NCBI GenBank assembly: GCA_964581995.1
Contig: CAZOQB010000003.1
Location: 41,989-105,988 of the forward strand
Length of the DNA stretch: 64,000 bases
Direction: 5' to 3'
Source: an uncultured Ignavibacteriaceae bacterium
Lineage (GTDB): Bacteria; Bacteroidota; Ignavibacteria; UBA10030; BY39
The position numbers and the translations under genes are program-made. Below are positions 1-46,260 of the stretch, one piece after another. Within the stretch, counting starts at the first letter, position 1. Every line of letters begins with the position of its first letter. The notes under the pieces are model-generated. The model was not told where the DNA came from and did not search any database. It worked only from the letters and a program-made list of their open reading frames with translations.

Positions 1-2
1 AC

Positions 3-224
3 AACCACGATTTCCACGAATCGAAGCGCCATATTGAAAAACGCACATTAATTGTCGTTTTGCTGACTATCGCGACTATGGCAGTAGAGATTACCGCGGG
101 AACGATGTTTCACTCGATGGCACTCCTCGCCGATGGTTGGCACATGGGCACACACGCAACGGCATTAGGAATTTCACTGATGGCATACGTGCTGGCGCGC
201 CGCCATTCGCTCGAGGTTGTCTAA
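3..224 (+). pseudogene. Truncated duplicate of the 5' part of a cation-diffusion-facilitator (CDF) gene
   Basis: Translation ..NHDFHESKRHIEKRTLIVVLLTIATMAVEITAGTMFHSMALLADGWHMGTHATALGISLMAYVLARRHSLEVV* matches residues ~15-88 of the intact CDF at 7932..8906. Nucleotide identity is about 90% by eye. The copy ends in a premature stop after ~74 codons and runs off the window's 5' edge. Confidence 0.7.
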
Positions 225-486
225 AAAGGTTCTCTTCAGCCCGAGGCTGATGAGCCTTTGGCTCACGATACTCCATGATGAAACCATGCACTTGAGAACC
301 AGCATGTTTAGCCGGTTTTCGAGTGTTCTTCGACGACAAGTCGAAGAATGTAACGAGAAAACAAACTTATTGGTCAGCCACTCGCTCATAAGCTGCGGAA
401 TGTTTGTTAATATTTGGCTCTATATTTATATTGTATGTTGGAAACCTAAATCACTATAATGTTTAACAATCAAAAGGGAAAACATC

Positions 487-1197
487 ATGAAAACATTCAG
501 TGTTTACTTGGGTATCTTGCTCTTTCTGTTTACTTCGTCATACAGCCAAACAGAAAAGAGACAGACAGCAATTGATTCAGTCATCACCCAGAAAGAGCAA
601 GCTGCATTAACTCCGCAGCAAGTTTTATTCTTGCTGAAGGAAGGCAACAGACGGTTTGTTGAACAAAAGACAACTTTAAAAGATTTCAAACAACAGATAT
701 CGCAGACTTCAAAAGGACAATACCCTATGGCTGTTATCTTGAGTTGCATTGACTCGAGAACGTCATCCGAAATAATTTTCGACCAGGGGCTCGGCGATAT
801 TTTCAATGCAAGAATTGCCGGCAATTTTGTGAATGATGATATACTTGGCAGTATGGAGTTTGCATGCAAGGTATCGGGTTCCAAACTCATTCTCGTTGTT
901 GGACACACAAATTGTGGCGCAATAAAAGGCGCTTGCGACAATGTTGAGCTTGGCAACCTCACTCACGTTATCAAAGAAATAATGCCTGCCGTGGAAACAG
1001 TTTCCGATGTGCATGGAGAGCGTAACTCCCATAATCACGAGTTTGTTGAAAAAGTATCCAAACAAAATGTGTTTCTGGCTATTAAGGAAATAAGAGACAA
1101 GAGCAAAATCCTCAAGGAGATGGAATCTTCGAGGGCAATAAATATTTTAGGCGCTATGCACAACTTAGAGACCGGAGAAGTGGAGTTTTTCAAGTAG
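487..1197 (+). CDS. Secreted beta-class carbonic anhydrase
   Basis: N-terminal signal peptide. Beta-CA zinc-ligand motifs SCIDSR and HTNCGA are present. Confidence 0.9.
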   Translation: MKTFSVYLGILLFLFTSSYSQTEKRQTAIDSVITQKEQAALTPQQVLFLLKEGNRRFVEQKTTLKDFKQQISQTSKGQYPMAVILSCIDSRTSSEIIFDQGLGDIFNARIAGNFVNDDILGSMEFACKVSGSKLILVVGHTNCGAIKGACDNVELGNLTHVIKEIMPAVETVSDVHGERNSHNHEFVEKVSKQNVFLAIKEIRDKSKILKEMESSRAINILGAMHNLETGEVEFFK

Positions 1198-1296
1198 TCA
1201 TTAATCCACAATAGACAAGAACGCTTTGCCACTCAGCGGTAGCCGTTGTTGCAGGCACTAAAAATTTATTTAACTAAATAACAAAGGAGTTGAACT

Positions 1297-2751
1297 ATGG
1301 AAAAGAAAAAGAAACTTACTCACAATTCTGGTGCACCTGTTGTTGACAATCAAAATGTTATGACAGCAGGTAAAAAGGGACCAATGCTTTTACAGGATGT
1401 ATGGTTTCTTGAAAAACTTGCTCACTTCGACAGGGAAGTAATTCCAGAGCGAAGAATGCATGCTAAAGGTTCCGGTGCTTATGGAACATTCACTGTTACA
1501 CATGATATCACAAAATACACAAGGGCAAAAATATTTTCACACGTTGGAAAAAAGACAGAATTATTTGTCAGGTTTTCAACTGTTGCTGGCGAACGTGGTG
1601 CAGCCGATGCGGAACGGGATATTCGAGGATTTGCTATAAAATTTTATACTGAAGAAGGCAACTGGGATTTAGTAGGAAACAATACACCAGTATTTTTTCT
1701 AAAAGATCCGCTGAAATTTCCTGATTTAAATCATGCAGTAAAGAGAGATCCGAAAACAAATTTACGAAGCGCGAAGAACAATTGGGATTTCTGGACATCA
1801 CTTCCCGAAGCTCTTCATCAAGTAACAATTACTATGAGCGACCGCGGAATACCTTATTCTTACCGCCATATGGATGGATTCGGGAGTCATACTTTTAGTT
1901 TTATTAATTCAAAAAACGAAAGGTATTGGGTTAAATTCCATTTAAAAACTCAACAGGGAATTAAAAATCTTACCGATCAGGAAGCAGAAGCAATAATTGC
2001 TAAAGATAGAGAAAGCCATCAAAAAGATTTATTTGAAAGCATTGAAAAAAAGGATTTCCCGAAATGGAAAATGTCCATACAAATAATGCCGGAGAAAGGT
2101 GCATCAAAGACTCCGTACAATCCATTCGACCTTACGAAAGTTTGGCCCCATAAAGATTATCCATTAATTGAGGTGGGAATTATGGAGCTTAACCGCAATC
2201 CGGAAAATTACTTTGCCGAAGTTGAACAGTCGGCTTTTAATCCGGCAAACATTGTTCCCGGTATTGGGTTCTCTCCCGATAAAATGCTTCAAGGACGTTT
2301 ATTTTCTTATGGTGATGCGCAAAGATATAGACTTGGAGTTAATCATCATTTGATTCCGGTTAATGCACCAAAATGTCCATATCATAGTTTTCACCGTGAT
2401 GGACAAATGAGAGTTGACGACAACCACGGCGCAACTCTCGGTTACGAACCTAATAGTTATGGCGAGTGGCAAGAACAACCTGAGTTTAAAGAACCACCCC
2501 TAAGTATCGAAGGTGCTGCAGACCATTGGAATCATAGAGAAGATACAGACTACTATTCACAAGCTGGAAATCTTTTCCGTCTGATGAATAAAACCCAACA
2601 ACAGGTTCTTTTTGAAAATACAGCAAGAGCTATGGGTGACGCTCCGAAGGAAATAAAAATTAGACATATAGGAAATTGTCTCAAAGCTGATGAAGCATAT
2701 GGAAAAGGAGTGGCTCAGGCACTTGGAATAAATGTAAGTGAAATAAAATAA
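1297..2751 (+). CDS. Monofunctional heme catalase, small-subunit type (484 aa)
   Basis: Strong catalase signatures ([35 protein letters not shown]-like core, [16 protein letters not shown]). Length is typical of clade-3 catalases. Confidence 0.95.
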
Positions 2752-2851
2752 AATTAATTCAATAGTGCGCACTCTTTCAATACATGACGGGCGCAAAAAG
2801 GTTCAAGATGAAAACGAGTGATACATTGCAACTATATCGAAGGATAGACCA

Positions 2852-3139
2852 ATGAATAGTATAGGCCCGGATTCAAAGGTAGAAGACAATTCTACTGCTT
2901 ATCAAGACACTCCAATTGTCTCAAAAGCCCTACGACAGACAAAGCGAGTCATTGTTATCGTTATTGGCTTTTCAATCCTTTTTGTGGGGATTGCTATGTT
3001 TGTTTTGCCGGGACCCGATATTCTTGTCATACCGCTTGGACTGAGGATCCCCGCAACCGAGTTGCTTTGGGCGAGGTATCTACTGAAAACAATAAAAAAT
3101 AAATTTTATCAAAAAAAGGAAATGAACCATGCCAATTAA
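2852..3139 (+). CDS. Small transmembrane protein, PGPGW-like
   Basis: 95 aa, two TM helices, LPGPD motif. Confidence 0.45.
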   Translation: MNSIGPDSKVEDNSTAYQDTPIVSKALRQTKRVIVIVIGFSILFVGIAMFVLPGPDILVIPLGLRIPATELLWARYLLKTIKNKFYQKKEMNHAN

Positions 3140-3434
3140 ACCGAGTGACAAAGAAGAAGATTACTTTGCGAGACTTGATCTTGAAAGAAGGAAAAAAATC
3201 GAAGGGGAGAAACTCAAACAGATTGCAGAGGAGGAAAAAAGACAACTCAAGGAACTCCACTATATGCGCTGTCCGAAGTGTGGAATGAAACTAAACGAGA
3301 TAGATTATAAAAGTATTAAAGTTGACAAATGCTTCAGTTGCGATGGCGTATGGCTTGATGCTGGAGAACTTGAGTCGGTCGCTAAACTCGAAAAAGGAGC
3401 ACTGGACAAGTTGTTCGGTGTCTTTAAGAAATAA
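3129..3434 (+). CDS. Zinc-ribbon domain protein
   Basis: CPKCG...CFSCDG four-Cys ribbon in a charged N-terminal context. Overlaps the upstream gene by 11 nt. Confidence 0.55.
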   Translation: MPIKPSDKEEDYFARLDLERRKKIEGEKLKQIAEEEKRQLKELHYMRCPKCGMKLNEIDYKSIKVDKCFSCDGVWLDAGELESVAKLEKGALDKLFGVFKK

Positions 3435-3453
3435 TACATTTTTAATTAAATTT

Positions 3454-3675
3454 ATGAAAAAGAATATCTTTGAAACGATTCGTTATTTTGCTAAGAACAT
3501 TGCCATTGTTATTGGCATCGTTCTAATTTGGCGAGGTATTTGGTATGTACTCGATTACTTTGACATGTTGTTTTTTCAAGGTAATCATCTGCCTTTGGCT
3601 GTCGGAGGCATTATTATAGGCTTGTTAATACTTTATTTGCCAGATAGAGATCTCAAAGAAATTGAGAAGCTTTAG
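3454..3675 (+). CDS. Small hydrophobic membrane protein (73 aa), hypothetical
   Basis: ATG at 3454 inside a longer ORF-track entry. Two predicted TM helices. Placed in the operon by position. Confidence 0.4.
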   Translation: MKKNIFETIRYFAKNIAIVIGIVLIWRGIWYVLDYFDMLFFQGNHLPLAVGGIIIGLLILYLPDRDLKEIEKL

Positions 3676-3692
3676 TCAAATAATTACAACAG

Positions 3693-4151
3693 ATGAAGAT
3701 CAAAAAGGAAAATATGAATCATATAACAGTAAGAGAAGGAAGCGATTACTTTAGAGGATTACTTCTGCTAATCAGTAAAGACCGAAAGATTTCTGAACCA
3801 GAGATTATCCTGATGAAACGCATTGGTAAAGCTTTAGGGTTTGAAAAAGATTTCTGTAATAACGCCATTCATGAGATTCTCGAAAACAAACATGTCTCAA
3901 TTGAACCGCCCAAATTCTCAACGAATGAATTGGCGAAGAAATTCATCAAAGACGGTCTGATGTTAGCAGACTCTGATAATGAAATCCATGCATTTGAAGA
4001 AGTTTGGCTAAAAACTACGGCAGAGAAAAATGGTATTGACATAGAATTGTTTCTTCGAGAGAAAGAGATTGCTGCCGGAAGAAGAAGAGACCTCGATGAT
4101 CATTTGGAAGTGGACGATCTTACCGTAGAACATTCAAGACGCGACACATGA
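3693..4151 (+). CDS. TerB-like (tellurite-resistance TerB / DjlA-N fold) protein
   Basis: About 150 aa, helical, with an ADSDNEIHAFEEVWL acidic motif resembling TerB. The family call is tentative. Confidence 0.4.
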   Translation: MKIKKENMNHITVREGSDYFRGLLLLISKDRKISEPEIILMKRIGKALGFEKDFCNNAIHEILENKHVSIEPPKFSTNELAKKFIKDGLMLADSDNEIHAFEEVWLKTTAEKNGIDIELFLREKEIAAGRRRDLDDHLEVDDLTVEHSRRDT

Positions 4152-4240
4152 TCATAGTGACTTTCGATACCAAAATTATAGGTGCAGACACAATCAATCT
4201 ACTCAACAACGGTGTTCAACAATAACAAAAAGGACAGCCT

Positions 4241-4699
4241 ATGGCAAAACCCATAACACGACAATCATTTGATCGAATCACGAGATCTTTTATCTATCTT
4301 GTCAGGTGGTTCGAACGATTTCTGGCGATCGGTGTGCTGATTGGTGTCATTGTGCACACTGTTTCAAGCACGGTCATCTTCACCAGCATGGACTGGGGGC
4401 TTACAGAGACTCTTTACGACTTGATCTACCGTGCGCTGTTGTTGGTGATCGGGCTGGAACTCGTGCGGATGCTGGTCGTGCACGACCTAATGGCAATCTT
4501 GGAATTGCTGGCCTTCGTCATCGCACGCAAGATGTTGAAGCCCGATATCGATGGGCTTGACATCCTTCTGGCAGTCGTGGCGTTCGTGGCACTGCTGGCG
4601 GCGCGCCGTTATTTGCTGTCCGCTCCCGGCCCTCCTGCAAAGAAGGAAAGCAAAGAGGATAACACCGAACTATATAAATCTGAAATGAAAGGTGTGTAG
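4241..4699 (+). CDS. PsiE-like small inner-membrane protein
   Basis: 152 aa, four hydrophobic helices, architecture matches the phosphate-starvation-inducible PsiE family. It sits at the start of the high-GC block. Confidence 0.4.
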   Translation: MAKPITRQSFDRITRSFIYLVRWFERFLAIGVLIGVIVHTVSSTVIFTSMDWGLTETLYDLIYRALLLVIGLELVRMLVVHDLMAILELLAFVIARKMLKPDIDGLDILLAVVAFVALLAARRYLLSAPGPPAKKESKEDNTELYKSEMKGV

Positions 4700-4717
4700 A
4701 AACTTGGCTTTAGCTCT

Positions 4718-4981
4718 TTGGAGTTCCATAGCATGACTGGATTATTAGTCGTAGTTGCCACGGGATTCCTTTTGCCTTTCATTGCGCCGCAGGTAAACCG
4801 CTGGCTGAATCGTAAAGTGACCGTCGCAATTTGTGGGAGCGGACCGGTGATCGCATTTGCCAATTTCGTGAGTCTTGCCGATCCTATGAGTAAAGGCGAA
4901 TCGCTAACATTCTCTCCTCACTGGATACGAAGCATCGGCTTCAACCTCTCGTTCTTTGCTGACGGATTGAGTATTCTTTAA
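4718..4981 (+). pseudogene. N-terminal fragment (87 aa) of an MrpA/MnhA/NuoL-type antiporter subunit
   Basis: ..LLPFIAPQVNRW...WIRSIGFNLSFFADGLSIL resembles the MrpA/NuoL N-terminus (WIPSLGINFTVYIDGLGLLF). The ORF stops after 87 codons, whereas full proteins are >600 aa. Confidence 0.55.
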
Positions 4982-5023
4982 TACACCATATTCGGAGTGC
5001 ATATGATTGATGGAGCCTAAACA

Positions 5024-7738
5024 ATGGAAATATTAATAGGTAAGCACTGGCATCACCTGCCAACAGATGAAGTAATTGACCTCCTGGATAGTGATCAGGG
5101 AAAGGGGCTGGATCTTTTCGAGGTCGACCATCGCCAGAAAGAATTCGGTCCCAATGCTATCACCGGGAAAAAGGGGAAAGGACCGCTGCTGCGCTTCCTT
5201 CTCCAATTCCATCAGCCCCTGATCTACATTCTGCTGGCGGCCGGTTCAGTTACGGCCTTTCTTCAGGAATTGGTCGATGCCGGTGTTATTTTCGGAGTTG
5301 TGCTGGTCAATGCGCTCATAGGTTTTATCCAGGAAGCAAAAGCGGTCAAAGCCATAGAAGCTTTGGCCAGGACAATGACAACTGAGGCAACTGTGTTGCG
5401 GGCGGGCGAGAAACAACGCATCTCCTCGGCAGAAGTGGTCCCGGGCGACATCGTCCTTCTGCAGTCCGGTGACAAAGTGCCCGCGGATATGCGCCTATTT
5501 CAAACACGAGATCTTCAGGTGGATGAGTCCGCCCTAACCGGAGAGTCGGTGCCCGTGGATAAAAAACCGGATGTCCTCGACCACGACACGGGACTGGCTG
5601 ACCGGCAAAACATGGCGTATGCCTCGAGTCTAGTCACCTACGGTCAGGGTATCGGCATTGTCGTAGCTATTGGTGACAAGACGGAAGTGGGGCGCATCTC
5701 TGAACTTATCTCGTCAACAGAGGCATTGGAGACCCCGCTGACCCGTAAGATTGCCCGCTTCAGTCATATCCTGCTCTACGCGATCCTGGCACTTGCCGCG
5801 CTCACTTTTGTCGTAGGCCTCATACGGGGACAATCCGTCTTTGATATGTTCATGGCGGCTGTAGCCCTGTCAGTAGGTGCTATCCCTGAGGGCCTGCCGG
5901 CTGCGCTGACGATTACTCTGGCCATCGGTGTTGGCCGGATGGCGCGCAGGCGGGCCATAATCCGAAAACTCACAGCAGTGGAGACCCTCGGCAGCACAAC
6001 AGTCATCTGCTCCGACAAGACCGGTACTCTGACTGAGAACCAGATGACGGTGCAGGAGATCTTTGCAGGCGGTGAGCGATTTGAAGTCACCGGCGCAGGC
6101 TACACGCCCTCAGGCCGGATTCTCAAACAAGGGATTGCGGTGGATGCGTCAGGGTCACCGGCGCTGATGGAATGTCTGAAAGCAGGCTTATTGTGCAACG
6201 ACAGTTTGCTGTTGAAGAAAGAGGGCCGCTGGGCAATACAGGGTGATCCCACTGAAGGAGCGTTGCTGGTTTCTGCGGTCAAGGCAGGGCTCGACATGGC
6301 CACCGTACAAAAGGGATTGCCTCGCATCGATGCAATCCCTTTCGAATCGCAGCACCAGTATATGGCTTCCCTGCATGACAAAGGAAAGGACAATCCCGGC
6401 ATCATATATGTCAAGGGTTCTGTGGAAGCCATCATGGAAAGATGTGTTTCATCCCTTGATACAACTGGGCATCCTGCTGAACCGAATGTCGAACAGATTC
6501 ATAGAGCAGTGGAGGAAATGGCAGCCAATGGAATGCGGGTGCTCGCTTTTGCAAAAGGCGAAATCAAGCCCGGGACAACCGGGCTGAATCACCCTGATGT
6601 GGCTTTCGGCTTGATCTTTCTCGGTCTCCAGGGAATGATCGATCCGCCCCGGCAGGAGGCAATCCTCGCAGTTCAGAAGTGTCACACAGCGGGTATTCGC
6701 GTCAAGATGATCACCGGCGATCACGCCCTCACAGCTTCCTCGATTGCGCAGCAGGTTGGCCTTCACAATCCGTCCAATGTTGTCACCGGAAAGGCCTTGA
6801 TGAAAATCTCCGACAGGGAACTGATTGATGTTGCCGACCGTACATTTGTTTTCGCCAGAGTAACGCCTGAGCAAAAACTCCGCCTGGTTGAAGCCCTGCA
6901 GGTCAAGGGGAACGTTGTAGCCATGACCGGAGACGGGGTTAATGATGCCCCGGCTCTGAAAAGGGCAGACATCGGAGTGGCGATGGGCATCACCGGAACC
7001 GACGTAGCAAAAGAGGCAGCCGATATGGTGCTAACGGACGACAACTTCGCCTCCATAGAAGCCGCTGTAGAGGAAGGGCGGGGCATCTTCGATAATCTCA
7101 CCAAGTTCATCATCTGGACACTTCCCACCAACCTCGGTGAGGGACTGGTGATTCTCGCAGCGATATTCGCCGGTGCTACATTACCTATACTGCCGGTGCA
7201 GATTCTCTGGATCAATATGACAACCGCCGTGCTGCTGGGACTCATGCTTGCCTTCGAGCCTAAGGAGCCTGGCATTATGACACGGCCGCCACGCGATCCT
7301 AAGACGCCTATACTTACGCGGGAGTTGATCGGGCGGATTTTTATCGTGAGTACGCTCTTGCTCATCGGAGCATTCGGTCTTTTTGAGTGGGAACTCATGC
7401 AGGGGGCAGTCATACCTGAGGCGCGTACAGTCGCGGTAAACGTCTTTGTCATAGTTGAACTTTTCTACCTCTTCAATTGTCGGTCGCTGACAAAGTCCGT
7501 GTTCAGGATCGGTCTTTTTTCAAACCCCTGGGTGTGGGGCGGAGTTACCATTATGGTGATCTTGCAGTTGCTCTACACATATTTACCGGTCATGAACAGG
7601 ATGTTCCATAGCGCGCCTATCAGCATCGAGGCCTGGGAGCGGATATTGGCAGTAGCGCTCATCGCATTCTTTGTGGTGGGCTTCGAAAAATGGCTCCGTC
7701 AAAGGCTTTCGAAGAGATGGTCTGTTCAACGAATATAG
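5024..7738 (+). CDS. Cation-transporting P-type ATPase (type II/III, Ca2+/Mg2+-like)
   Basis: DKTGTLT phosphorylation motif, TGD, MTGDGVNDAPAL hinge, ten TM helices, 904 aa. Local GC is clearly higher than the flanks. Confidence 0.9.
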   Translation: MEILIGKHWHHLPTDEVIDLLDSDQGKGLDLFEVDHRQKEFGPNAITGKKGKGPLLRFLLQFHQPLIYILLAAGSVTAFLQELVDAGVIFGVVLVNALIGFIQEAKAVKAIEALARTMTTEATVLRAGEKQRISSAEVVPGDIVLLQSGDKVPADMRLFQTRDLQVDESALTGESVPVDKKPDVLDHDTGLADRQNMAYASSLVTYGQGIGIVVAIGDKTEVGRISELISSTEALETPLTRKIARFSHILLYAILALAALTFVVGLIRGQSVFDMFMAAVALSVGAIPEGLPAALTITLAIGVGRMARRRAIIRKLTAVETLGSTTVICSDKTGTLTENQMTVQEIFAGGERFEVTGAGYTPSGRILKQGIAVDASGSPALMECLKAGLLCNDSLLLKKEGRWAIQGDPTEGALLVSAVKAGLDMATVQKGLPRIDAIPFESQHQYMASLHDKGKDNPGIIYVKGSVEAIMERCVSSLDTTGHPAEPNVEQIHRAVEEMAANGMRVLAFAKGEIKPGTTGLNHPDVAFGLIFLGLQGMIDPPRQEAILAVQKCHTAGIRVKMITGDHALTASSIAQQVGLHNPSNVVTGKALMKISDRELIDVADRTFVFARVTPEQKLRLVEALQVKGNVVAMTGDGVNDAPALKRADIGVAMGITGTDVAKEAADMVLTDDNFASIEAAVEEGRGIFDNLTKFIIWTLPTNLGEGLVILAAIFAGATLPILPVQILWINMTTAVLLGLMLAFEPKEPGIMTRPPRDPKTPILTRELIGRIFIVSTLLLIGAFGLFEWELMQGAVIPEARTVAVNVFVIVELFYLFNCRSLTKSVFRIGLFSNPWVWGGVTIMVILQLLYTYLPVMNRMFHSAPISIEAWERILAVALIAFFVVGFEKWLRQRLSKRWSVQRI

Positions 7739-7931: not shown

Positions 7932-8906
7932 TTGGAGATCATAATGAAGACACAGCATACATTAAACGATGAACACAACCACGATTTCCATGAATCGAAG
8001 CGACATATAGAAAAACGGACATTAATTGTCGTTTTGTTGACCATTGCGACCATGGCAGTAGAGATTACCGCCGGAATGATGTTTCATTCGATGGCGCTTC
8101 TTGCCGATGGTTGGCATATGGGCACACACGCAACGGCATTAGGAATTTCACTGATGGCATACGTGCTGGCACGCCGCCATTCGTTGGATAAACGATACGC
8201 ATTTGGGACCTGGAAGATAGAAATACTTGGCGCATATACGAGTGCTCTCATTCTCGGTATAGTTGGACTCTCGTTAGTTGTTGCATCTGTCGATCGTTTA
8301 ATGAATCCTCAAGCTATCGATTACACTTTAGCAATAATTGTTGCTGTTGCCGGCTTGCTAGTAAACATTGTCAGTGCGTTCATTATGAATGCCGGCAGTA
8401 CACATAAAGATTCCTCTCACTCTGAATCTTCACATTCGTCTCACACTCACAACGATTTGAATCTTCGGTCAGCGTATCTCCACGTTATTGCCGATGCTGC
8501 AACATCGGTACTTGCTATTGCCGCTCTTATTGGAGGGCAAATGTTTGGATGGATTTGGCTCGATCCTATGGCAGGATTGATCGGCGCAGCCATGATCGCC
8601 CGATGGACTGTTTCTCTCTTGCGTGATAGCTCAGCAATTCTGTTGGACAGAGAAATGGATTCACCGTTAGTAGAACGAATAAAAACGGCTATCGAGGTTG
8701 ATGGCAGCAGCAAGGTGAATGATCTTCATCTGTGGCGGGTTAGCGACGCGCGCTATGCATGCATTGTGTCGGTATGTTCAACGGTGCCGCACTCAGCCGA
8801 CCGCTACCGGAAAACATTAAGTGGTTTTAAAGAGATCACACACCTGACTATAGAAACACATTGGCATGAGGAAGGGACAGATCAATTCTCAGATAAGTTG
8901 GCATAG
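7932..8906 (+). CDS. Cation diffusion facilitator family transporter (CzcD/ZitB-like)
   Basis: Six TM helices. His-rich loop HKDSSHSESSHSSHTH. C-terminal cytoplasmic domain. Confidence 0.9.
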   Translation: MEIIMKTQHTLNDEHNHDFHESKRHIEKRTLIVVLLTIATMAVEITAGMMFHSMALLADGWHMGTHATALGISLMAYVLARRHSLDKRYAFGTWKIEILGAYTSALILGIVGLSLVVASVDRLMNPQAIDYTLAIIVAVAGLLVNIVSAFIMNAGSTHKDSSHSESSHSSHTHNDLNLRSAYLHVIADAATSVLAIAALIGGQMFGWIWLDPMAGLIGAAMIARWTVSLLRDSSAILLDREMDSPLVERIKTAIEVDGSSKVNDLHLWRVSDARYACIVSVCSTVPHSADRYRKTLSGFKEITHLTIETHWHEEGTDQFSDKLA

Positions 8907-11781: not shown

Positions 11782-13803
11782 TTGATGCACGAACTCGACA
11801 TACTCAGCGAACTTGTGCTACTACTCGCGGTAATAATAGTTGTGATTTCTATTTTCAGAAAAATTAATATTCCACCGCTTGTGGGTTTCTTGATCAGTGG
11901 ACTAATCATCGGTCCTTACGGAATTAAACTAGTCAAGAATATAGAAGCGGTAAATGTTCTTGCTGAAGTCGGTGTTGTGCTTTTACTTTTTACAATCGGA
12001 CTTGAGTTTTCGTTAATGCGATTAAAACGGATTAAGAAAATTGTTTTGATAGGCGGTGGCTTACAAGTTCTCTTAACTATTATAGTCGTAACATTTTTAC
12101 AAATGGTGATGGGTTTGGAGTTTCGGCAATCACTCTTCGTGGGCTTTTTAATCTCACTCAGCAGTACCGCAATTGTAATGAAACTGCTTACCGAAAAAGC
12201 AGAAACAGATACACCTCACGGGAAGATATCTCTCGGCATTTTGCTTTTTCAAGATTTATGCATCGTTCCGATGATGTTATTGGTTCCAGTTCTTGCTGCT
12301 TCGAGCGGGACCACTGTCATTGATGTTGTACTGAATTTTATAATTTCACTCGCTGGCATAGGTGTTATAATTGTAGCCGCTATCTACCTAATGCCCAAGT
12401 TGGTAGAGTTTTTAGTTCTTGCTAAAAGTCGAGAACTGTTTGTAATTGGTGTTGTGTTTTTGAGTTTAGGAACAGCACTCGTTACTTCGTACGTTGGACT
12501 ATCGCTCGCTTTAGGAGCGTTCATCGCCGGCTTAATTTTATCAGAATCTGAATACTCGCATGAAATCGTAGGCGCTGCTTTGCCGTTTCGAGATGCACTA
12601 AGCAGTCTGTTCTTCATTTCAATCGGAATGTTGGTGAACATTAATTTACTTTTTGAAAAATCGGTTCTCTTAATTTTTATCTCGGCAATAATCGTGGCGA
12701 TAAAATTTATCATTGCTGCTTTAGTAGTTTTGTATCTTTCATTTCCGGCACGAACTGCTATCATCGTGGGATTTTCATTATCTCAAATTGGTGAGTTTTC
12801 ATTTATACTCGCACTGGCTGGAATATCATCCGGACTGATGAACAACGAAACGTATCAAATGTTTTTGGGTGCATCCATAATAACTATGATATTGACTCCG
12901 TTGTTCATTCAATTTTCCACTCCAACGGCACATTTCCTTCAAAAAATATTACCTCACAAAATCATCACGCACTTCTTTAATCGAATTGTTGCCGATGAAG
13001 TGGTTGATAAATACACACTATCTGATCTTAAAAATCACGTGATAATCGTAGGATATGGATTGAATGGAAAAAATGTTGCATCGGTTTTAAAAGAAACAGG
13101 AATTAAATATTTGATGGTTGATTTAAACGGTGAGACCGTCAAAGCCGCACGGAAGTTAGGAGAAAATGTAATATATGGCGATGCTACACGAAAAGAAATG
13201 CTGCAGCACTTAGGTATTGAGACTGCGCGCGTATTAGTGATTTCGATTTCAGACTCGGACGCAATGAGGCGGATATTAAAAACTGCCCGAAACCTTAACC
13301 CGGATTTACACATTATATCTAGAACGAGGTCGGTTGCTGATATCGAAGATCTATACAAATTAGGCTCGGATGAAGTAATTCCTGAAGAGTTTGAAACTTC
13401 GATTGAAATATTTATGCGAGTTCTACGGCAGTATCATTTGCCTCGAAACATAATTGCAGCACAAGTTGATTTGATACGGCGTGAAGGATACGGAATGTTC
13501 CGCGGACTGAAACTCCCCGATGCAACGATGGACCAATTAACCGCAATACTCGCGGCAGGGACGACAGATACATTTCTCGTTTTAAATGAGTCGCCCGCTT
13601 GTGGAAAAACTTTAGCCGACTTAAATTTACGATTTCTTTCGGGATGCTCCGTAATCGCAGTCGTCCGCGATAATAAGCCGACTACAAACCCACCCGCTGA
13701 TTTAAAAATAGAACCGGGTGACGTTATGGTGCTCTTAGGAACACACGCCGAGATAGATAAAGCGTTTGATTTATTAAGCCCGCCGAGGATGGAAGAAGGC
13801 TGA
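11782..13803 (+). CDS. CPA2 family cation:proton antiporter (Kef-type) with RCK/TrkA-N and TrkA-C domains
   Basis: N-terminal ~390-aa multi-TM Na_H exchanger domain. IIVGYGLNG Rossmann (TrkA-N). C-terminal TrkA-C. Confidence 0.85.
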   Translation: MMHELDILSELVLLLAVIIVVISIFRKINIPPLVGFLISGLIIGPYGIKLVKNIEAVNVLAEVGVVLLLFTIGLEFSLMRLKRIKKIVLIGGGLQVLLTIIVVTFLQMVMGLEFRQSLFVGFLISLSSTAIVMKLLTEKAETDTPHGKISLGILLFQDLCIVPMMLLVPVLAASSGTTVIDVVLNFIISLAGIGVIIVAAIYLMPKLVEFLVLAKSRELFVIGVVFLSLGTALVTSYVGLSLALGAFIAGLILSESEYSHEIVGAALPFRDALSSLFFISIGMLVNINLLFEKSVLLIFISAIIVAIKFIIAALVVLYLSFPARTAIIVGFSLSQIGEFSFILALAGISSGLMNNETYQMFLGASIITMILTPLFIQFSTPTAHFLQKILPHKIITHFFNRIVADEVVDKYTLSDLKNHVIIVGYGLNGKNVASVLKETGIKYLMVDLNGETVKAARKLGENVIYGDATRKEMLQHLGIETARVLVISISDSDAMRRILKTARNLNPDLHIISRTRSVADIEDLYKLGSDEVIPEEFETSIEIFMRVLRQYHLPRNIIAAQVDLIRREGYGMFRGLKLPDATMDQLTAILAAGTTDTFLVLNESPACGKTLADLNLRFLSGCSVIAVVRDNKPTTNPPADLKIEPGDVMVLLGTHAEIDKAFDLLSPPRMEEG

Positions 13804-14134
13804 TAGTCAATGGTTATTGATTAATGATTAATTGGCAATTAGCAATTCGGAATTCGTAATTCGTAATTGTTAATGGTTAATGTCCGATCGGAATAGCGGA
13901 TGAATAAATTGGTGGATTGGTGGAGTGATGGAGTTATGTAAAAATAAAAAGAAGGGCCGAAACGGAGATTCGGGGTTTTAAAAATTAAGCGTTGGTTTTA
14001 TACCTCACAATTTTGTATTTTAAACACCATTATATGCAAAACATAAAACATATTGATTCACTTGAGTTATCGGAACTTCAGTCATATCGAACAATGCGTC
14101 GGGCGGCTGGGCACGTCAAGCAAGGAATATTTGT
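13488..14134. repeat. Direct repeat copy 1 (kef 3' end, intergenic region, 5' end of TrmH-like gene)
   Basis: Near-identical to 15322..15892, apart from an internal low-complexity indel of about 70 bp at 13805-13895 and a few SNPs. Confidence 0.85.
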
Positions 14135-14239
14135 AACTTCATATGAGAAAAGGAAACTAAATTCTTGAAGAGCTATATTGCTAATCTTGAGAAGAAGATT
14201 ATCCCTAAACAGAAAAATATTTCAAAGGGTGCTTGACCC

Positions 14240-15292: not shown

Positions 15293-15321
15293 TTGGGCGA
15301 AATAAGTGAAATAACCAATGA

Positions 15322-15637
15322 ATACGGAATGTTCCGCGGACTGAAACTCCCCGATGCAACGATGGACCAATTAACCGCAATACTCGCGGCAGGGACGACA
15401 GATACATTTCTCGTTTTAAATGAGTCGCCCGCTTGTGGAAAAACTTTAGCCGACTTAAATTTACGATTTCTTTCGGGATGCTCCGTAATCGCAGTCGTCC
15501 GCGATAATAAGCCGACTACAAACCCACCCGCTGATTTAAAAATAGAACCGGGTGACGTTATGGTGCTCTTAGGAACACATGCCGAGATAGATAAAGCGTT
15601 TGATTTATTAAGCCCGCCGAGGATGGAAGAAGGTTAA
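15322..15637 (+). pseudogene. Duplicated 3' fragment of the kef gene (TrkA-C region)
   Basis: Encodes YGMFRGLKLPDATMDQL...PPRMEEG, identical to the Kef C-terminus at 13488..13803. No N-terminal part is present. Confidence 0.8.
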
Positions 15638-15892
15638 TGGTCAGTCGGAATAGTGGATGAATAAATTGGTGGATTGGTGGAGTGATGGAGTTATGTAAAA
15701 ATAAAAAGAAGGGCCGAAACGGAGATTCGGGGTTTTAAAAATTAAGCGTTGGTTTTATACCTCACAATTTTGTATTTTAAACACCATTATATGCAAAACA
15801 TAAAACATATTGATTCACTTGAGTTATCGGAACTTCAGCCATACCGAACAATGCGTCGGGCGGCTGGGCACGTCAAGCAAGGAATTTTTGTC
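15322..15892. repeat. Direct repeat copy 2
   Basis: See 13488..14134. Confidence 0.85.
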
Positions 15893-34671: not shown

Positions 34672-34828
34672 ATTAATGTAAAGGTTTTTTCGCCATCCAC
34701 GCTAACCAAACGATGACCGACCAAATTATTGAGCGCAAACCCATAGCATGTACGCTGTGCAATGCAACAACGCCACCCAAAATATGCATTATGCTAACGA
34801 GAGCCAATACAATCAGGTGCATTGCCAA
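34672..34828 (-). pseudogene. Remnant (C-terminal ~50 codons plus 15 nt of 3' UTR) of a paralog of the 51279..51668 membrane-protein gene
   Basis: About 95% nucleotide identity to 51293..51450. No upstream portion of the gene is present. Confidence 0.7.
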
Positions 34829-41296: not shown

Positions 41297-41318
41297 TCAA
41301 TCATAAGGAATATTTAAT

Positions 41319-42464: not shown

Positions 42465-42499
42465 TGCATAGGAAAGAATTGTGAATAGTTGTTTTTCAA

Positions 42500-43963: not shown

Positions 43964-43964
43964 T

Positions 43965-44240
43965 ATGATTAATCAGTTGCTGATAAATGGTTTAATTTCT
44001 GGAGCGATTTATTCTCTCGTGGCTCTTGGCTTTGCCCTCATTTACCAAACAACCCGTGGCGAAGCCACTCCTTTGGAGCTTCTTCTCCCGCTTTACAGCG
44101 GGACAGGCACTTCCCAAAGGGACAAGTCGCTCACGGGGCTGTTTATACATTTGGCGCTTACACTTCGACGGATTTTACCCCGACGAAAGTAGGGGCTCAG
44201 CGCATGATTTGCTTATCTGTTTTACACACAACTAGAATCT
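43965..44240 (+). pseudogene. Degraded duplicate of the 5' end of livH
   Basis: MINQLLINGLISGAIYSLVALGFALIYQTTRG.. versus LivH MIEQLILNGIIAGSIYSLVAIGFALIYQTTRFF... The nucleotide match resumes at gctcacggggctgtttatacatttggcgcttac and cttatctgttttacacaca. Two GC-rich insertions break the frame. Confidence 0.7.
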
Positions 44241-44284
44241 CCTTTTTTATAGTATGATTATCATGGATAAGTTGTTTGCATTTC

Positions 44285-44322
44285 ATATACAAAAGTATAT
44301 ATTTGTATACAAAAGTATATAA
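44285..44322. promoter_or_regulatory. Tandem direct repeat (tatacaaaagtatata x2), candidate operator upstream of the wHTH-MNT gene
   Basis: Two 15-16-nt units separated by ~4 nt, about 40 nt upstream of the ATG at 44363. Each unit is internally palindromic (TATAC..GTATA). Confidence 0.35.
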
Positions 44323-44362
44323 ACAAGTCAAAAGTCAAAATTAAAAATTAAAAAAATATGAA

Positions 44363-44974
44363 ATGATAATTCACAGGGTATTTGATGAGGTGTTTCGGTC
44401 GTGGTCGCATGTAGCGGTATTGCGGGCTTTACTCGATACGTCGACCGGCTCTACCGGTAATGAAGTGGCGCGTGTATCGGGGATGCAACCGCGATCAGCA
44501 TTGAAGGCGCTGACTTCATTGGAAGCGCTGGGGATTGTTCGCCGCCAGCGGGGTGGAAGAGACCACATTTTTACTTTAAATCGAGAGCACTTCATTGTTC
44601 GTGATGCGATCTTATCACTATACAACTCGGAACGACAATTCCCTGAGGTTCTTGTCAATGAGCTTAAAGCAATTTTGAAAAGCCCTGTTGTAAGTGCAGT
44701 AATGTTTGGAAGCGCCGCTAGAAGAGAAGAGACTCCCCAATCCGATCTCGATATTTGCTGCGTTGTTAAGAGTGAAAAACAAAAGGATGTCGTGCGAGAC
44801 ATATTGAACGATCAAGCCGGGATATTATTTCGGAAATATGGTGTTAAAATTTCTCCTTTACTTTTTACGGTTGATGAACTGCGGAAGAAATCAAAAAATC
44901 AAATCATCAAAAGTATTATAGAAGACGGCAGAGTGATCACCGGGAAAAATCCGAAGGTACTATTAAATGGCTAA
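44363..44974 (+). CDS. Winged-helix + minimal nucleotidyltransferase (MNT) domain protein
   Basis: N-terminal MarR-like wHTH. FGSAARREETPQSDLDICCV nucleotidyltransferase motif. Local GC is markedly higher than the neighbouring radical SAM genes. Confidence 0.75.
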   Translation: MIIHRVFDEVFRSWSHVAVLRALLDTSTGSTGNEVARVSGMQPRSALKALTSLEALGIVRRQRGGRDHIFTLNREHFIVRDAILSLYNSERQFPEVLVNELKAILKSPVVSAVMFGSAARREETPQSDLDICCVVKSEKQKDVVRDILNDQAGILFRKYGVKISPLLFTVDELRKKSKNQIIKSIIEDGRVITGKNPKVLLNG

Positions 44975-45377
44975 ACGACGGGGAAGGAAATCGGTTGATA
45001 GATCACGATACCGGGAGTATTTAAATGTTGCGGAACATTTTTATCAAGCCGGAAAGGATTCTTTTGAATTAGAATACCATACCGCTGCAGGCGTTTTGGT
45101 TGTACACTCGGCAATTGCTTATGCAGACGCACTCTGTATAAAACTATCAGGACAAAGGAGTGCAGGTGAAAATCATGAAGATGTTATCGCCATATTAGAA
45201 AACGTTGTAGCGGATAGTGATGATAAAAAGAAAGCAATACAGCAGCTAAGGCGAATCATAGAAGAAAAAACGCTGATTTCGTATTCGGGAGAATTGTATA
45301 CTGCAAGCGGTGTTGGTGAGTTAATGAAAAGGTTAGAGAGGTTTCGTGAATGGGCAGTGGGAATCTTAAACCGGTGA
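44967..45377 (+). CDS. HEPN-domain protein, partner of the MNT gene
   Basis: 136 aa, helical. Overlaps the MNT gene by 8 nt. Classic MNT-HEPN arrangement. Confidence 0.6.
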   Translation: MAKRRGRKSVDRSRYREYLNVAEHFYQAGKDSFELEYHTAAGVLVVHSAIAYADALCIKLSGQRSAGENHEDVIAILENVVADSDDKKKAIQQLRRIIEEKTLISYSGELYTASGVGELMKRLERFREWAVGILNR

Positions 45378-45381
45378 AGCC

Positions 45382-46260
45382 ATGATCGAACAACTTATTC
45401 TCAATGGAATAATTGCTGGCAGTATTTACTCACTCGTTGCCATCGGCTTCGCTCTCATCTACCAAACCACCCGCTTCTTTCACTTCGCTCACGGCGCTGT
45501 TTATACATTCGGCGCTTACTTCGCTTATCTGTTTTACACACAGCTTGGGTTAGATAGATTTGTAGCGTTTCCTCTCGCTTGCATCTGCGCAGCACTTATC
45601 GGCGTAATCTGCGAAATCATTATTTATAAACCGATGCGAGCGAGGAAAGCAACCGACCTTACATTACTCATAGCATCGCTTGGTCTCTACATCGTTTTAC
45701 AAAATATCATCTCCATGCTCTGGGGAGACGATACTAAAACAATGCGAACAGGTGAAGTGGTTGAGGGACATGAATTTCTTGGCGCACGAATTACAGATAT
45801 CCAAATCGCAATCATCGTAACGTCTATCGTTTTGATTGCGCTGATTTCGCTGATGTTATCGAGGATGAAGTTTGGTAAGGCACTGCGTGCGCTGGCGAAT
45901 GATCCTGAGCTTGCACGGCTGAGCGGTATCAACTCTGATCGGTATATCATGTATGCGTTTGCTATCGGCTCGTTCTTAGCTGCCGTTGCTGCAATTATGA
46001 TCTCGTTTGATACAGACATGACTCCGACTATGGGCTTCAATGCGTTGGTTATGGGAGTGATTGCTGTGATTGTCGGCGGAATTAACAGTTTGCCGGGTGC
46101 GGCGCTTGGTGGTTTGTTTATCGGTCTTGCACAGAATTTAGGTGTGTGGCAGTTGCCCTCAAAGTGGCAGGATACGATAGCGTTTGTGATACTGATTTTG
46201 TTTTTACTTTTTAGACCGTATGGAATACTCGGGAAGAAACCGACGAAGGAACATGTATGA
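45382..46260 (+). CDS. livH: Branched-chain amino-acid ABC transporter permease (LivH-like)
   Basis: 292 aa, eight or more TM helices, typical LivH N-terminus. Confidence 0.8.
   Translation: MIEQLILNGIIAGSIYSLVAIGFALIYQTTRFFHFAHGAVYTFGAYFAYLFYTQLGLDRFVAFPLACICAALIGVICEIIIYKPMRARKATDLTLLIASLGLYIVLQNIISMLWGDDTKTMRTGEVVEGHEFLGARITDIQIAIIVTSIVLIALISLMLSRMKFGKALRALANDPELARLSGINSDRYIMYAFAIGSFLAAVAAIMISFDTDMTPTMGFNALVMGVIAVIVGGINSLPGAALGGLFIGLAQNLGVWQLPSKWQDTIAFVILILFLLFRPYGILGKKPTKEHV

Follow-up and report, generated by a model that had tools for sequence, protein, structure and literature searches.

Leftover pieces of host genes beside small defence, toxin-antitoxin and stress genes in an uncultured Ignavibacteria genome point to ordinary recombination with foreign DNA

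How do small accessory genes come to lie beside broken copies of their host neighbours when no recombinase is in sight? The window analysed here, a 64,000-nt stretch of an uncultured Ignavibacteria genome (GCA_964581995.1, contig CAZOQB010000003.1), raises this question, as its small defence, toxin-antitoxin (TA) and stress genes adjoin leftover pieces of the neighbouring host genes (Table 1). The original prediction listed four repeat pairs formed by such pieces, and self-BLAST together with a repeat finder recovered all of them at the expected places and identities (92.3%; 98.8 and 96.9%; 76–94%; 94.5%). Judged from their sequences, the leftover pieces appear mostly to be diverged alleles of other lineages, and they speak for ordinary recombination between host and foreign DNA, not for a dedicated mobile-element enzyme.

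Table 1. Gene fragments, cargo and intact genes at the four loci of the window
Feature	Position	Strand	Remarks
CDF (DmeF-like) 5' fragment	1..214	+	runs on upstream beyond window edge
Carbonic anhydrase, catalase, PGPGW, Zn-ribbon and uncharacterised genes	487..4151	+	normal GC
High-GC block: two uncharacterised ORFs and P-type ATPase	4241..7738	+	GC 0.48–0.59
Intact CDF/DmeF gene	7944..8906	+	apparent second allele relative to fragment
Repeat copy 1: intact kef 3' end, spacer, trmH 5' fragment	13488..14134	+	
Insert X	14135..15321	+	1187 bp
HsdM/Eco57I-like methylase N-terminus, frameshifted remnant	14162–14286		within insert X
DUF1016/YhcG PD-(D/E)XK nuclease	14282–15292		within insert X; PADLOC PDC-S02
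Repeat copy 2: kef 3' fragment, short spacer, intact trmH 5' end	15322..15891	+	
Copy of last 47 codons of the 51279–51668 gene	34680..34824	-	94.5%; upstream of rrf2-cox2-cox1
livH 5' remnant	43965..44236	+	codons 1–31, 36–47, ~50–57
Conserved double palindrome TTCATATACAAAAGTATATATTTGTATACAAAAGTATA	44282..44321	+	upstream of MNT-HEPN cargo
HTH-MNT nucleotidyltransferase	44363–44974	+	
HEPN	44967–45377	+	with HTH-MNT, TA-type cargo (44363..45377)
Intact livH	45382..46260	+	
GxxExxY (PDDEXK_3, TIGR04256) ORF	46262..46746	+	exactly between livH and livM
Older, internally deleted remnant of the 51279–51668 gene	49709..49861	-	about 73%
Intact 129-aa membrane-protein gene	51279..51668	-	source of both 3' remnants

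Pfam or NCBIfam scans of most larger window ORFs, and of the two ORFs (MTase, HNH) within the 5 kb upstream of the window, taken from an ENA contig, found no integrase or transposase. The window contained no tRNA genes, no Rfam matches and, according to the repeat finder, no long inverted repeats, and no terminal inverted repeats were found near the repeat pairs. Among the selected cargo ORFs scanned in related loci, no integrase was found either. The early impression that no recombinase was in sight held, and the missing mobility genes support the view that this is not a classic IS or integrase footprint.

At the kef/trmH locus, direct repeats of 647 and 570 bp, each comprising a kef 3' end, a spacer and a trmH 5' end, flank insert X, and the intact trmH gene occupies 15791–16669. 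Self-BLAST aligned 13488–13809 with 15322–15643 at 98.8% identity and 13875–14134 with 15632–15891 at 96.9%; the copy 1 spacer carries 77 extra nucleotides of a heptamer repeat (array 13810–13874). Pfam confirmed Kef, DUF1016/YhcG and SpoU/TrmH. A short hsdM-3'-like tail follows the DUF1016 gene, loci L169 and L170 show an hsdM-DUF1016-hsdS arrangement, and insert X is probably a decayed piece of a restriction-modification (RM) locus. In two related species kef is followed by trmH across a 353-nt spacer with the same heptamer repeats (L006) or a 110-nt spacer (L007), and the single L006 kef-trmH copy aligns with both window repeats. Because kef and trmH are adjacent in both species, the insert is a true insertion of known polarity, and this DUF1016 insertion is lineage-specific, with empty sites in these relatives.

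The kef/trmH locus has the exact A-R-X-R-B shape of a Campbell-type entry, in which a small circle bearing cargo and one copy of the target segment would integrate by a single homologous crossover and could re-excise or amplify through the resulting direct repeats. Kobayashi's group proposed this life cycle of entry, excision and amplification for RM units, and the passages of PMC2853133 concerned with it report such units and cite the group's experimental work on their amplification through flanking repeats. In sample ERZ27284381, the assembly graph runs from A through a shared 139-mer, a loop (L167, 1757 nt, equal to X plus the short R) and a shared 139-mer to B. A single integrated copy, a tandem array and a free 1757-bp circle accompanied by an empty site would each account for this graph equally well. 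On the other side, one MEGAHIT contig (L001) leads from X across repeat copy 2 and on into 163 kb of chromosome, and the first R+X circle would itself require an illegitimate event. We regard circle entry as a lesser possibility.

The kef/trmH locus would also allow a local event, in which the insertion created a long target-site duplication, whether through staggered breaks, template switching during replication or a tandem duplication that took up filler DNA, and the non-functional copy then decayed. The repeats are nearly identical, derived changes are concentrated in copy 1 (three of them in the non-functional trmH fragment), and the heptamer array differs in length between the copies, as slippage predicts. 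The copies differ by 9 SNPs, and the outgroup L006 matches copy 2 at 7 of them; at 97–99% identity, these SNPs are too few to establish a heteroallelic origin at this locus, where a local long target duplication may apply.

The CDF locus gives a different picture of its two copies. In full, the fragment forms an ORF of 97 aa, with an MTase-HNH restriction-modification pair and a czcA-like RND pump ahead of it. Positions 1–209 and 7975–8183 are 92.3% identical by self-BLAST, and fragment and intact gene differ by 16 synonymous and 2 non-synonymous changes (pN/pS 0.04), a pattern that departs from the null of local duplication followed by decay (P = 8e-6). Pfam confirmed the CDF fragment, the intact CDF/DmeF, carbonic anhydrase, catalase and the P-type ATPase. 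The labels "PsiE-like" and "mrpA remnant" found no support, as profile searches returned only a weak TgpA_N match for 4241–4699 and no domain match for 4718–4981. The stretch 224–7932, previously taken as a single 7.7-kb cargo, is instead a mosaic, in which only 4200–7800 is compositionally foreign. The adjacency of czcA and CDF in one relative, and of CDF and a directly following catalase in relative L166, suggests that the fragment occupies the ancestral slot and that the catalase may be native to the locus. The case can alternatively be read as a redundant resident CDF decaying after a second allele came, with no mechanistic link to the cargo.

The predicted degraded livH 5' duplicate ahead of MNT-HEPN is likewise present, with intact livH after the cargo, and Pfam confirmed MNT, HEPN and LivH. 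The remnant (43965–~44236) matches livH from 45382 in patches of 76% and 94%, is interrupted by two short unrelated inserts and abuts the stop of the upstream ORF, like a native livH start. Identical or near-identical copies of the double palindrome, which looks promoter- or operator-like, precede other cargo in L091 (34 nt, 100%) and L171. In the closest relative, L106 (LivH 97% identical), HicAB takes the place of MNT-HEPN; the first 60 nt of the window livH are 75% identical to L106 and the rest of the gene about 91%, which puts a breakpoint of recombination at the 5' end of livH.

A livH 5' fragment upstream of intact livH recurs in 10 of 81 related loci, compared with 2 of 124 for livM, livG and livF combined (Fisher P = 0.002). 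The absence of clustering among these fragments favours independent events. Nine of the ten start at codon 1–4, with ends ranging from codon 34 to 138, and the tenth, from L091, is an internal piece truncated by the end of its contig. MNT-HEPN lies between fragment and livH in the window and in L171 (MNT 73% identical), and even with this homologous cargo the endpoints differ (about codon 57 and codon 120, respectively), which counts against circle entry. The cargo is VapBC-type in L097 (PIN toxin plus an unassigned upstream ORF) and L109, AbiEi with HicBA in L091, and subtilase and other genes in L126; in L088, L092 and L096 the fragment is followed by a 55-nt spacer alone, without cargo. Across loci, the slot upstream of livH holds MNT-HEPN, HicAB, HicBA, VapBC, or DUF5678 with an aspartyl protease. 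Phage or island integration into tRNA genes or icd leaves a displaced gene end and a restored gene, an outcome alike to that seen here. Nevertheless, relics of site-specific elements that targeted a gene end, carried the replacement end and have since lost their integrase are extremely unlikely, given the spread of endpoints, the lack of an integrase in the window or the related-locus cargo ORFs scanned, and cargo of only 0.7–3.3 kb that is unrelated between loci.

Nearly all differences between the CDF copies, and between the livH copies, are synonymous. Fragments compared with their own livH gave pN/pS of 0.07–0.29 (window, L088, L092, L096, L097, L147, L160) and 0.08–0.09 in L109, L126 and L171 (P 1e-8 to 1e-10), values suggesting that both sets of pairs are diverged alleles and not local duplications that decayed. 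This synonymous excess rejects the local event for CDF and most livH fragments, and the L096 fragment is nearer the livH of other loci (87%, 85%) than its own (77%), so that a purely local origin is unlikely. Low pN/pS would also be expected if fragments were translated and under selection, and several retain open reading frames. The identities of 99, 95, 90% and "degraded" had been read as an age series; with pN/pS of 0.04–0.2, the CDF and livH copies had probably already diverged at joining, so their identity would mostly reflect donor-recipient distance and is not an age clock.

In five of the six livH-fragment cases with ORFs between fragment and gene, the cargo is TA-type, and the heteroallelic fragments begin at the native start and have variable right ends. 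Both features would fit a failed eviction, in which the addiction modules were already resident, incoming cargo-free alleles that deleted them killed the recombinant, and only one-ended, duplication-producing recombinants survived; the fragment would then be incoming DNA rather than a displaced resident end. RM units reportedly resist replacement, according to literature of the Kobayashi group. However, TA modules usually fill the slot even without fragments (L101, L106, L087), which makes their enrichment unspecific; cargo is missing beside the fragment at three loci, and the CDF cargo consists of stress and metal genes. We consider failed eviction rather unlikely.

The cases might be artefacts of chimeric joins or mis-traversed repeats in a metagenome-assembled genome: all compared genomes are metagenome assemblies, and the kef/trmH case breaks into three contigs in two MEGAHIT assemblies. 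An assembly artefact is nonetheless very unlikely, since the CDF case (ENA contig L003) and the livH case (a Logan contig, 100% identical over 37301–51345) each lie within single contigs at 100% identity in other samples and assemblers, and assemblers do not collapse copies that differ by 6–25%. Both junctions of X recur in samples ERZ27284377, ERZ27284381 and SRR8863436, and the same architecture appears in unrelated public assemblies (L097, L109, L126, L171).

The explanation that we favour, and hold to be probable, is recombination with relatives' DNA through homology at one end and an illegitimate join at the other. The fragments would be by-products of recombinase-free gain or exchange of accessory genes with DNA of related but diverged lineages. 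Incoming DNA would carry cargo beside a conserved gene (livH, CDF, kef/trmH), become anchored in that gene by host homologous recombination, and be joined illegitimately at its non-homologous end a short distance into the resident copy. The end of the resident gene would be displaced instead of replaced, remaining truncated beyond the cargo, and the working gene end would come from the donor. Once made, the fragment-cargo-gene unit could spread by ordinary homologous recombination, or could excise and re-enter via its own direct repeats. We infer the uptake route (transformation or another), the identity of the resident copy and the nature of the illegitimate join. Homology-facilitated illegitimate recombination (HFIR) or single-crossover circle entry, as originally proposed, is still the best fit, strengthened by the heteroallelic copies and the livH recurrence; of that interpretation, the non-IS footprint and the kef/trmH insertion are also supported, and the age series, the single 7.7-kb cargo and the 34.8–51.3 kb bracket are not supported.

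The arrangement is of a known kind (insertion with long target duplication, minimal mobile element), in a new phylum and with new cargo. In the RM units inserted with long target duplication (Nobusato et al. 2000, via Furuta, Abe & Kobayashi 2010, PMC2853133), the passages drawn on describe a small selfish or defence unit without other mobility genes, between long direct repeats whose sequence occurs just once in a related genome. The kef/trmH case fits, with its insert from an hsdM-DUF1016-hsdS locus, but its repeats measure 570 and 647 bp against up to about 420 bp in the tables drawn on, insert X keeps a solitary DUF1016 nuclease without methylase or specificity genes, and the host is an uncultured Ignavibacteria lineage; the heteroallelic livH and CDF copies are a point absent from those passages. 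In HFIR (de Vries & Wackernagel 2002; Prudhomme et al. 2002; via PMC5361080 and PMC3240628), a homologous anchor and an illegitimate join import foreign DNA without an element-encoded enzyme, and the diverged-allele signature fits an external donor. Classical, experimental HFIR usually leads to replacement or loss of recipient DNA, not to its duplication, which counts against our explanation, whereas here the join would fall inside a region that the donor also carries, leaving a partial duplicate; none of the junctions shows a clear microhomology or any other sign typical of illegitimate joining.

Minimal mobile elements of Neisseria (Saunders & Snyder 2002; Snyder et al. 2007), as defined in PMC3082526, share a fixed slot by conserved genes that holds different whole-gene cassettes per lineage, with exchange presumed through flanking homologous recombination. 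They exchange cleanly by definition, whereas about 14% of loci here keep a displaced flanking-gene fragment, and of the two flanks, only livH on the downstream side is conserved among the loci compared. Orphan modules in Rhs, CDI and T6SS effector-immunity arrays, for which HFIR was proposed (Kirchberger et al. 2017, PMC5361080), also gain a new module via a conserved anchor and keep the old gene end, pushed aside, as a partial copy. In those arrays the genes encode polymorphic toxins, and their conserved core belongs to the system itself; here unrelated housekeeping genes serve as anchors, and no immunity function is linked to the displaced piece.

The window holds 6.25 dispersed direct-repeat pairs per 100 kb, more than the 1.03 per 100 kb counted over 1.45 Mb of loci that represent 80 other species (Poisson P = 0.005). 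Partial gene copies beside accessory genes account for three of the four counted window pairs, the fourth (31792–31895 and 49198–49300) being a non-coding, terminator-like repeat. A possible further case had been suggested for the membrane-protein gene, and its repeat pair is real (34680–34824 and 51295–51439, 94.5% by self-BLAST), but the 34.8–51.3 kb segment it was thought to bracket contains the conserved liv operon. The remnant at 49709–49861 makes a better local case, with low-GC cargo (49869–51339, an uncharacterised ORF and a metallophosphoesterase) between it and the intact copy. The same signature occurs in L025, where HicA has a 218-nt copy of the neighbouring MscS gene's 3' end at its flank, and in L075, where a Bro-N gene lies between 201-nt repeats. 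Within the window, the GxxExxY ORF is enclosed by inverted GCAGATT-type unit arrays (46262–46330, 46712–46745).

The fragments of CDF and livH that precede the intact genes are alleles that diverged as working genes in separate lineages and were joined later. If such a fragment were a local duplicate, the dead copy would mutate regardless of codon position, giving a pN/pS near 0.5. The CDF fragment differs from intact CDF by 16 synonymous and 2 non-synonymous changes (pN/pS 0.04; P = 8e-6 against this decay null). Among the compared loci (L-numbers), the livH fragment of L096 gave 0.07 (P = 2e-6), those of L109, L126 and L171 gave 0.08, 0.09 and 0.09 (P 1e-8 to 1e-10), and those of the window, L088, L092, L097, L147 and L160 gave 0.16-0.29 (P 0.001-0.02); the codon test is invalid for the frameshifted fragment of L091. 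Values so far under the decay null show that the copies diverged while both were working, and local duplication followed by pseudogene decay was rejected for CDF and most livH fragments. Heteroallelic copies imply that the process uses DNA from outside the cell lineage, and that percent identity reflects the distance between donor and recipient, not the age of the event. The graded identities (99%, 95%, 90% and degraded), which the original prediction had read as a time series, are not borne out as such with heteroallelic copies at CDF and livH, and repeat identity should not be taken as insertion age. The synonymous/non-synonymous test, which tells a joined foreign allele from a local duplication, is usable genome-wide.

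Self-comparison of the window recovered all the previously listed repeats at essentially the same coordinates and identities. Dispersed direct-repeat pairs occur there at 6.25 per 100 kb, whereas the loci of 80 other species, 1.45 Mb in all, have 1.03 per 100 kb (Poisson P = 0.005). Pfam confirmed the gene identities that matter and gave no support to the labels "PsiE-like" and "mrpA remnant". The absence of a recombinase held as well: the scanned ORFs, which comprised most of the larger ones in the window and the MTase and HNH ORFs within the 5 kb before it (ENA contig), included neither an integrase nor a transposase. The window had no tRNA gene, no match to Rfam families and, in a whole-window scan, no long inverted repeats, and so nothing that points to a known RNA element or to an element with terminal inverted repeats; NCBIfam gave no match for the family-less ORFs near the junctions. 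An IS or transposon was rejected, there being no transposase among the scanned ORFs and no terminal inverted repeats or short target-site duplication, and an integrase-mediated island or prophage remnant was rejected for want of a recombinase among those ORFs and because the endpoints of the livH fragments vary from codon 34 to 138. Assembly artefacts are unlikely for CDF, which lies within a single ENA contig, and for livH, which lies within a Logan contig from a separate run, 100% identical over 37301-51345, but the kef/trmH case is split in MEGAHIT assemblies.

Features of the window and of compared loci (L-numbers); positions without a locus name are those of the window
Feature	Position or locus	Description
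MTase-HNH pair	L003 (same strain) 3400-4810	Immediately before the start of the window; N6/N4 DNA methylase and HNH endonuclease (PADLOC REase_II)
CDF pair	1-209 vs 7975-8183	92.3% identity
High-GC block	4200-7800	GC 0.48-0.59, background ~0.39; two family-less ORFs and P-type ATPase
kef/trmH pair, part one	13488-13809 vs 15322-15643	98.8% identity
kef/trmH pair, part two	13875-14134 vs 15632-15891	96.9% identity
Heptamer array, kef-trmH spacer	13810-13874; L006 (related species) 12020-12160	Tandem, AATTCGT/AATTAGC type
kef/trmH MEGAHIT contigs	to 14081; 13943-15699; from 15700	Middle contig 1757 nt
Methylase remnant	14162-14286	Frameshifted; residues 18-62 of HsdM/Eco57I-like methylase N-terminus, fused to DUF1016 gene start
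DUF1016 gene	14282-15292	Matches PADLOC candidate PDC-S02
Tandem 120-nt units	19229-19468	Two, 88% identical; within minus-strand ORF 19045-19575 (no family match)
Low-GC islet	26823-28949	GC 0.28-0.30; second MNT/HepT pair, then nucleotide-modification-associated Nmad2 and Nmad3 genes
Repeat flanking rrf2-cox	31792-31895 vs 49198-49300	79% identity
The same repeat, as terminator-like stretch	31787-31895 vs 49193-49300	79% identity; after cox1 and after LTXXQ gene
3' remnant and membrane-protein gene	34680-34824 vs 51295-51439	94.5% identity
Peptidase genes	35160-37641	ImmA/IrrE-type peptidase and DUF4411, then DUF5131 (PADLOC PDC-M41B, GC 0.50)
liv interruption 1, after livK	38820-43963	Radical-SAM block up to livH remnant: SPASM radical-SAM and B12-binding radical-SAM enzymes, two family-less ORFs (381, 487 aa); spacers 2-30 nt
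livH 5' remnant	43965-~44236	Patches 76-94% identical to livH at 45382
Double palindrome	44282-44321; L091 1447-1487; L171 5483-5523; L101 ~300-331; L090 5935-5978	Upstream of differing cargo
liv interruption 2, before intact livH		MNT-HEPN, with livH remnant ahead
liv interruption 3, between livH and livM	46262-46746	GxxExxY ORF (PDDEXK_3, TIGR04256), exactly between the two genes
Second 3' remnant	49709-49861	Internally deleted
Low-GC gene pair	49869-51339	GC 0.31-0.33
Membrane-protein gene	51279-51668	129 aa, no family assignment
Fragment-livH cargo	Window, L171	MNT-HEPN; MNT proteins 73% identical, endpoints differ
Fragment-livH cargo	L097, L109	VapBC-type; in L097 PIN toxin and family-less upstream ORF
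Fragment-livH cargo	L091	AbiEi and HicBA
Fragment-livH cargo	L126	Subtilase and family-less ORFs
Fragment-livH gap	Five other loci	55 or 295 nt only
livH slot, no fragment	L106	HicAB
livH slot, no fragment	L101	HicBA
livH slot, no fragment	L087, L089, L090	DUF5678 and aspartyl protease
GCAGATT-type arrays	L171 7486-7620, 5140-5165, 5520-5590; L096 ~1029-1084; L092 ~4293-4345	
DUF6880 gene	L171 7620-9392	590 aa, inserted between livH and livM
HicA-type pair	L025 158-1607	Flanked by 218-nt copy of neighbouring MscS gene 3' end
Bro-N gene	L075 18601-20132	Between 201-nt direct repeats

The slot upstream of livH offers a natural series, struck repeatedly in many uncultured lineages, in which the displaced gene ends retain a second lineage's allele. 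A livH fragment lies upstream of intact livH at 10 of 81 loci (80 metagenome loci with a livH relative and one genome locus), compared with 1/55 for livM, 0/39 for livG and 1/30 for livF (Fisher P = 0.002 for the excess at livH). Nine of the ten fragments start within codons 1-4, and their ends range from codon 34 to codon 138; that of L091 is internal, truncated where the contig stops. The fragments are no closer to one another than to intact genes, and the L096 fragment is 87% and 85% identical to livH of two other loci and 77% identical to its own livH, a pattern that favours independent events. The right flank, livH, is conserved among the compared loci, whereas the left flank is not. The livH of the window and that of L106 are ~91% identical over most of their length and 75% identical in the first 60 nt, a drop that suggests a recombination breakpoint at the 5' end of livH, beside the differing cargo. 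The only overlap at the fragment-cargo junctions that we read is a possible GAT in L171. Two short inserts interrupt the livH remnant of the window; no further copy of them turned up in the fetched loci, and they are not recognisable as a MITE family.

The best-supported account of these patterns is recombination of the chromosome with the DNA of a diverged relative, with homology at one end of the exchange and an illegitimate join at the other. The homologous end would be anchored in a conserved gene, and the illegitimate join would fall inside a stretch of the resident gene that is also present in the donor; the route of uptake, the identity of the resident copy and the chemistry of the illegitimate join we infer. 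Homology-facilitated illegitimate recombination (HFIR), the first suggestion of the original prediction, would in this way explain why the fragments have a fixed start and a variable end, why the copies are heteroallelic, why livH has a breakpoint in its first 60 nt, why the cargo varies and why no recombinase is seen.

Toxin-antitoxin cargo predominates in the slot, which fits a reversed sequence of events, with addiction modules as the residents and the fragments as scars of failed replacement by cargo-free alleles; the data do not require it. An addiction module (toxin-antitoxin or restriction-modification) would then survive attempted allelic replacement, and selfish cargo would shape the surviving recombinants. 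A linked reading is a cassette system of Ignavibacteria and relatives that would work with no dedicated recombinase and would be marked by inverted GCAGATT-type arrays at liv gene boundaries. We consider these two readings rather unlikely; if the addiction-module or the repeat-array reading were true, selfish-gene behaviour would be tied to a specific rearrangement scar.

Recombination with one-sided homology could also underlie the CDF case. Upstream of the window the order is a czcA-like pump, the MTase-HNH restriction-modification pair and the CDF fragment, and no flanking duplication was found around the MTase-HNH pair. In a relative with a 92%-identical CDF, czcC, czcB, czcA and CDF are consecutive, and in L166 a catalase gene, its protein 94% identical to that of the window, directly follows CDF. 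These adjacencies suggest that the fragment occupies the place of the resident CDF, between czcA and catalase; the intact CDF would be a second allele, placed after the high-GC block, which appears compositionally foreign. The fragment and intact gene are paired as described earlier, but the 7.7-kb block between them, proposed as a single cargo, is a mosaic. The arrangement could have arisen by one-ended recombination or by decay of a resident CDF made redundant by the second allele. Sliding identity against L166 revealed no breakpoint that would mark the intact CDF as a chimera, and in a three-way alignment of CDF 5' ends the three alleles were about equally distant.

At kef/trmH, the duplicated unit takes in 316 nt from the 3' end of kef, the spacer and ~100 nt from the 5' end of trmH, forming repeats of 647 and 570 bp around an insert of 1187 bp. 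In copy 1 the heptamer array of the spacer exceeds that of copy 2 by 77 nt. The source is an uncultured bacterium of the Ignavibacteria, and Kef is 86% identical in its closest species representative. The kef gene neighbours trmH in three related species, with nothing between them in two (L006, L007) and a serpin gene in one, and both repeats of the window align to the single copy of L006; the insert is therefore lineage-specific. The two copies differ by 9 SNPs, too few for the allele test; L006 agrees with copy 2 at 7/9, placing the derived state in copy 1 at 7/9, a polarity that fails to discriminate between the models. Exact-protein look-ups with Kef, TrmH, DUF1016, the ATPase and MNT gave only same-strain contigs and revealed no empty-site allele within the species.

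Contigs end inside the repeat in two MEGAHIT assemblies, where the graph runs from A through a shared 139-mer, a loop and the shared 139-mer again to B; one contig spans the insert, repeat copy 2 and 163 kb of chromosome. The graph is equally consistent with a single integrated copy, the state shown by the window, with a tandem array, and with a circle of 1757 bp lying free beside an empty site. Entry of a circle by a single crossover, the second suggestion of the original prediction, is compatible with this graph and is a live alternative, chiefly at kef/trmH; we rank it below illegitimate recombination.

The annotated 350-aa DUF1016 ORF (GTG at 14240) is probably a protein of 336 aa starting at 14282. 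Its nearest homologues (86% identical) are encoded between an HsdM/Eco57I-like methylase gene and, in L170, an HsdS gene; in L169, DUF1016 is flanked by a 37-nt repeat of the methylase 3' end. The methylase remnant and this methylase-DUF1016-HsdS setting mark the insert as a decayed piece of a restriction-modification locus, not a working pair. DUF1016 homologues 75-86% identical occur across many phyla, a distribution that points to very wide recent horizontal spread of the family. The hosts include Bacteroidota, Planctomycetota, Desulfobacterales, Omnitrophica, Elusimicrobia, Chlamydiota and others, and many of the homologues lie on contigs scarcely longer than the gene.

The suggested fourth case, a 34.8-51.3 kb segment bracketed as cargo, was rejected: the liv operon lies inside it, and relatives show no synteny in the flanks downstream of livF. 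The membrane-protein gene has two 3' remnants, of which the internally deleted one is the older, and only the low-GC gene pair lies between that remnant and the intact gene. The segment 49709-51668 is another, compact example of this architecture, here with a fragment of the gene's 3' end. The rrf2-cox operon is flanked by the 34.7-kb remnant and the terminator-like repeat. Together, this repeat and the two 3' remnants give the rrf2-cox block flanks similar to those of the LTXXQ gene.

Several known systems come close. Insertion with long target duplication of restriction-modification units, as delimited by Furuta et al. 2010 (PMC2853133), involves a duplication >30 bp, an insert <20 kb and no other mobile-element genes. 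By the definition in that source, the kef/trmH case agrees in duplication length, insert size and lack of mobility genes, and its insert is absent at the orthologous site, to which both repeats align; it differs in lacking a working R-M pair, with only the HsdM 5' remnant and DUF1016. PMC5361080 considers HFIR for the orphan arrays of T6SS and Rhs (see also PMC3240628), and a donor from a diverged lineage is seen here for CDF and livH (pN/pS 0.04-0.2). The minimal mobile elements of Neisseria, as defined in PMC3082526, form a further precedent: the slot upstream of livH likewise holds different whole-gene cassettes across lineages, but homologous exchange in both flanks would be expected, whereas here the right flank (livH) is conserved and the left is not. 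In pneumococcus, transformation-driven merodiploidy demonstrates that incoming DNA can create duplications (PMC3784515).

New here are the phylum, the cargo types (toxin-antitoxin pairs and a solitary DUF1016 nuclease), the extent to which a single housekeeping gene is hit again and again, and, from codon-level comparison, direct evidence that the duplicated pieces are foreign alleles. To our knowledge, recombinase-free movement of toxin-antitoxin and small defence genes is poorly documented beyond a few competent pathogens. The loci of the HicA-type pair (L025) and the Bro-N gene (L075) present the same signature at unrelated loci.

The liv operon of the window is broken at three points. The radical-SAM block after livK could be a peptide-modification cluster. 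The 40-nt double palindrome upstream of the cargo consists of TATAC-N4-GTATA twice and contains TAnnTTTG; it is near-perfectly kept in the window, L091 and L171, whose surrounding coding DNA differs by 15-30%, and is probably a promoter or operator exploited by the cargo. The GxxExxY ORF also occurs at L086, L087, L090, L102 and L171, with a second copy between livM and livG in L090; livH and livM abut in relatives without it. Inverted arrays of GCAGATT-type units enclose the ORF and pair into a long closing stem, a layout similar to that of rRNA intervening sequences. The arrays flank it in four relatives and enclose either such GxxExxY PD-(D/E)XK nuclease ORFs or nothing; in L171 they also form an empty forward-plus-reverse hairpin (-45 kcal/mol, z = -5.1). 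Forward arrays are fused directly to the livH fragment ends in L096, L092 and L171 and also lie between the conserved palindrome and the cargo. The arrays could be portable recombination or processing sites. The DUF6880 insert of L171 is bounded by GCAGATT arrays and a ~90-nt repeat, the latter found at two more junctions of the operon. In L097, the ImmA-DUF4411 part of the peptidase genes is kept upstream of the liv genes and DUF5131 is not.
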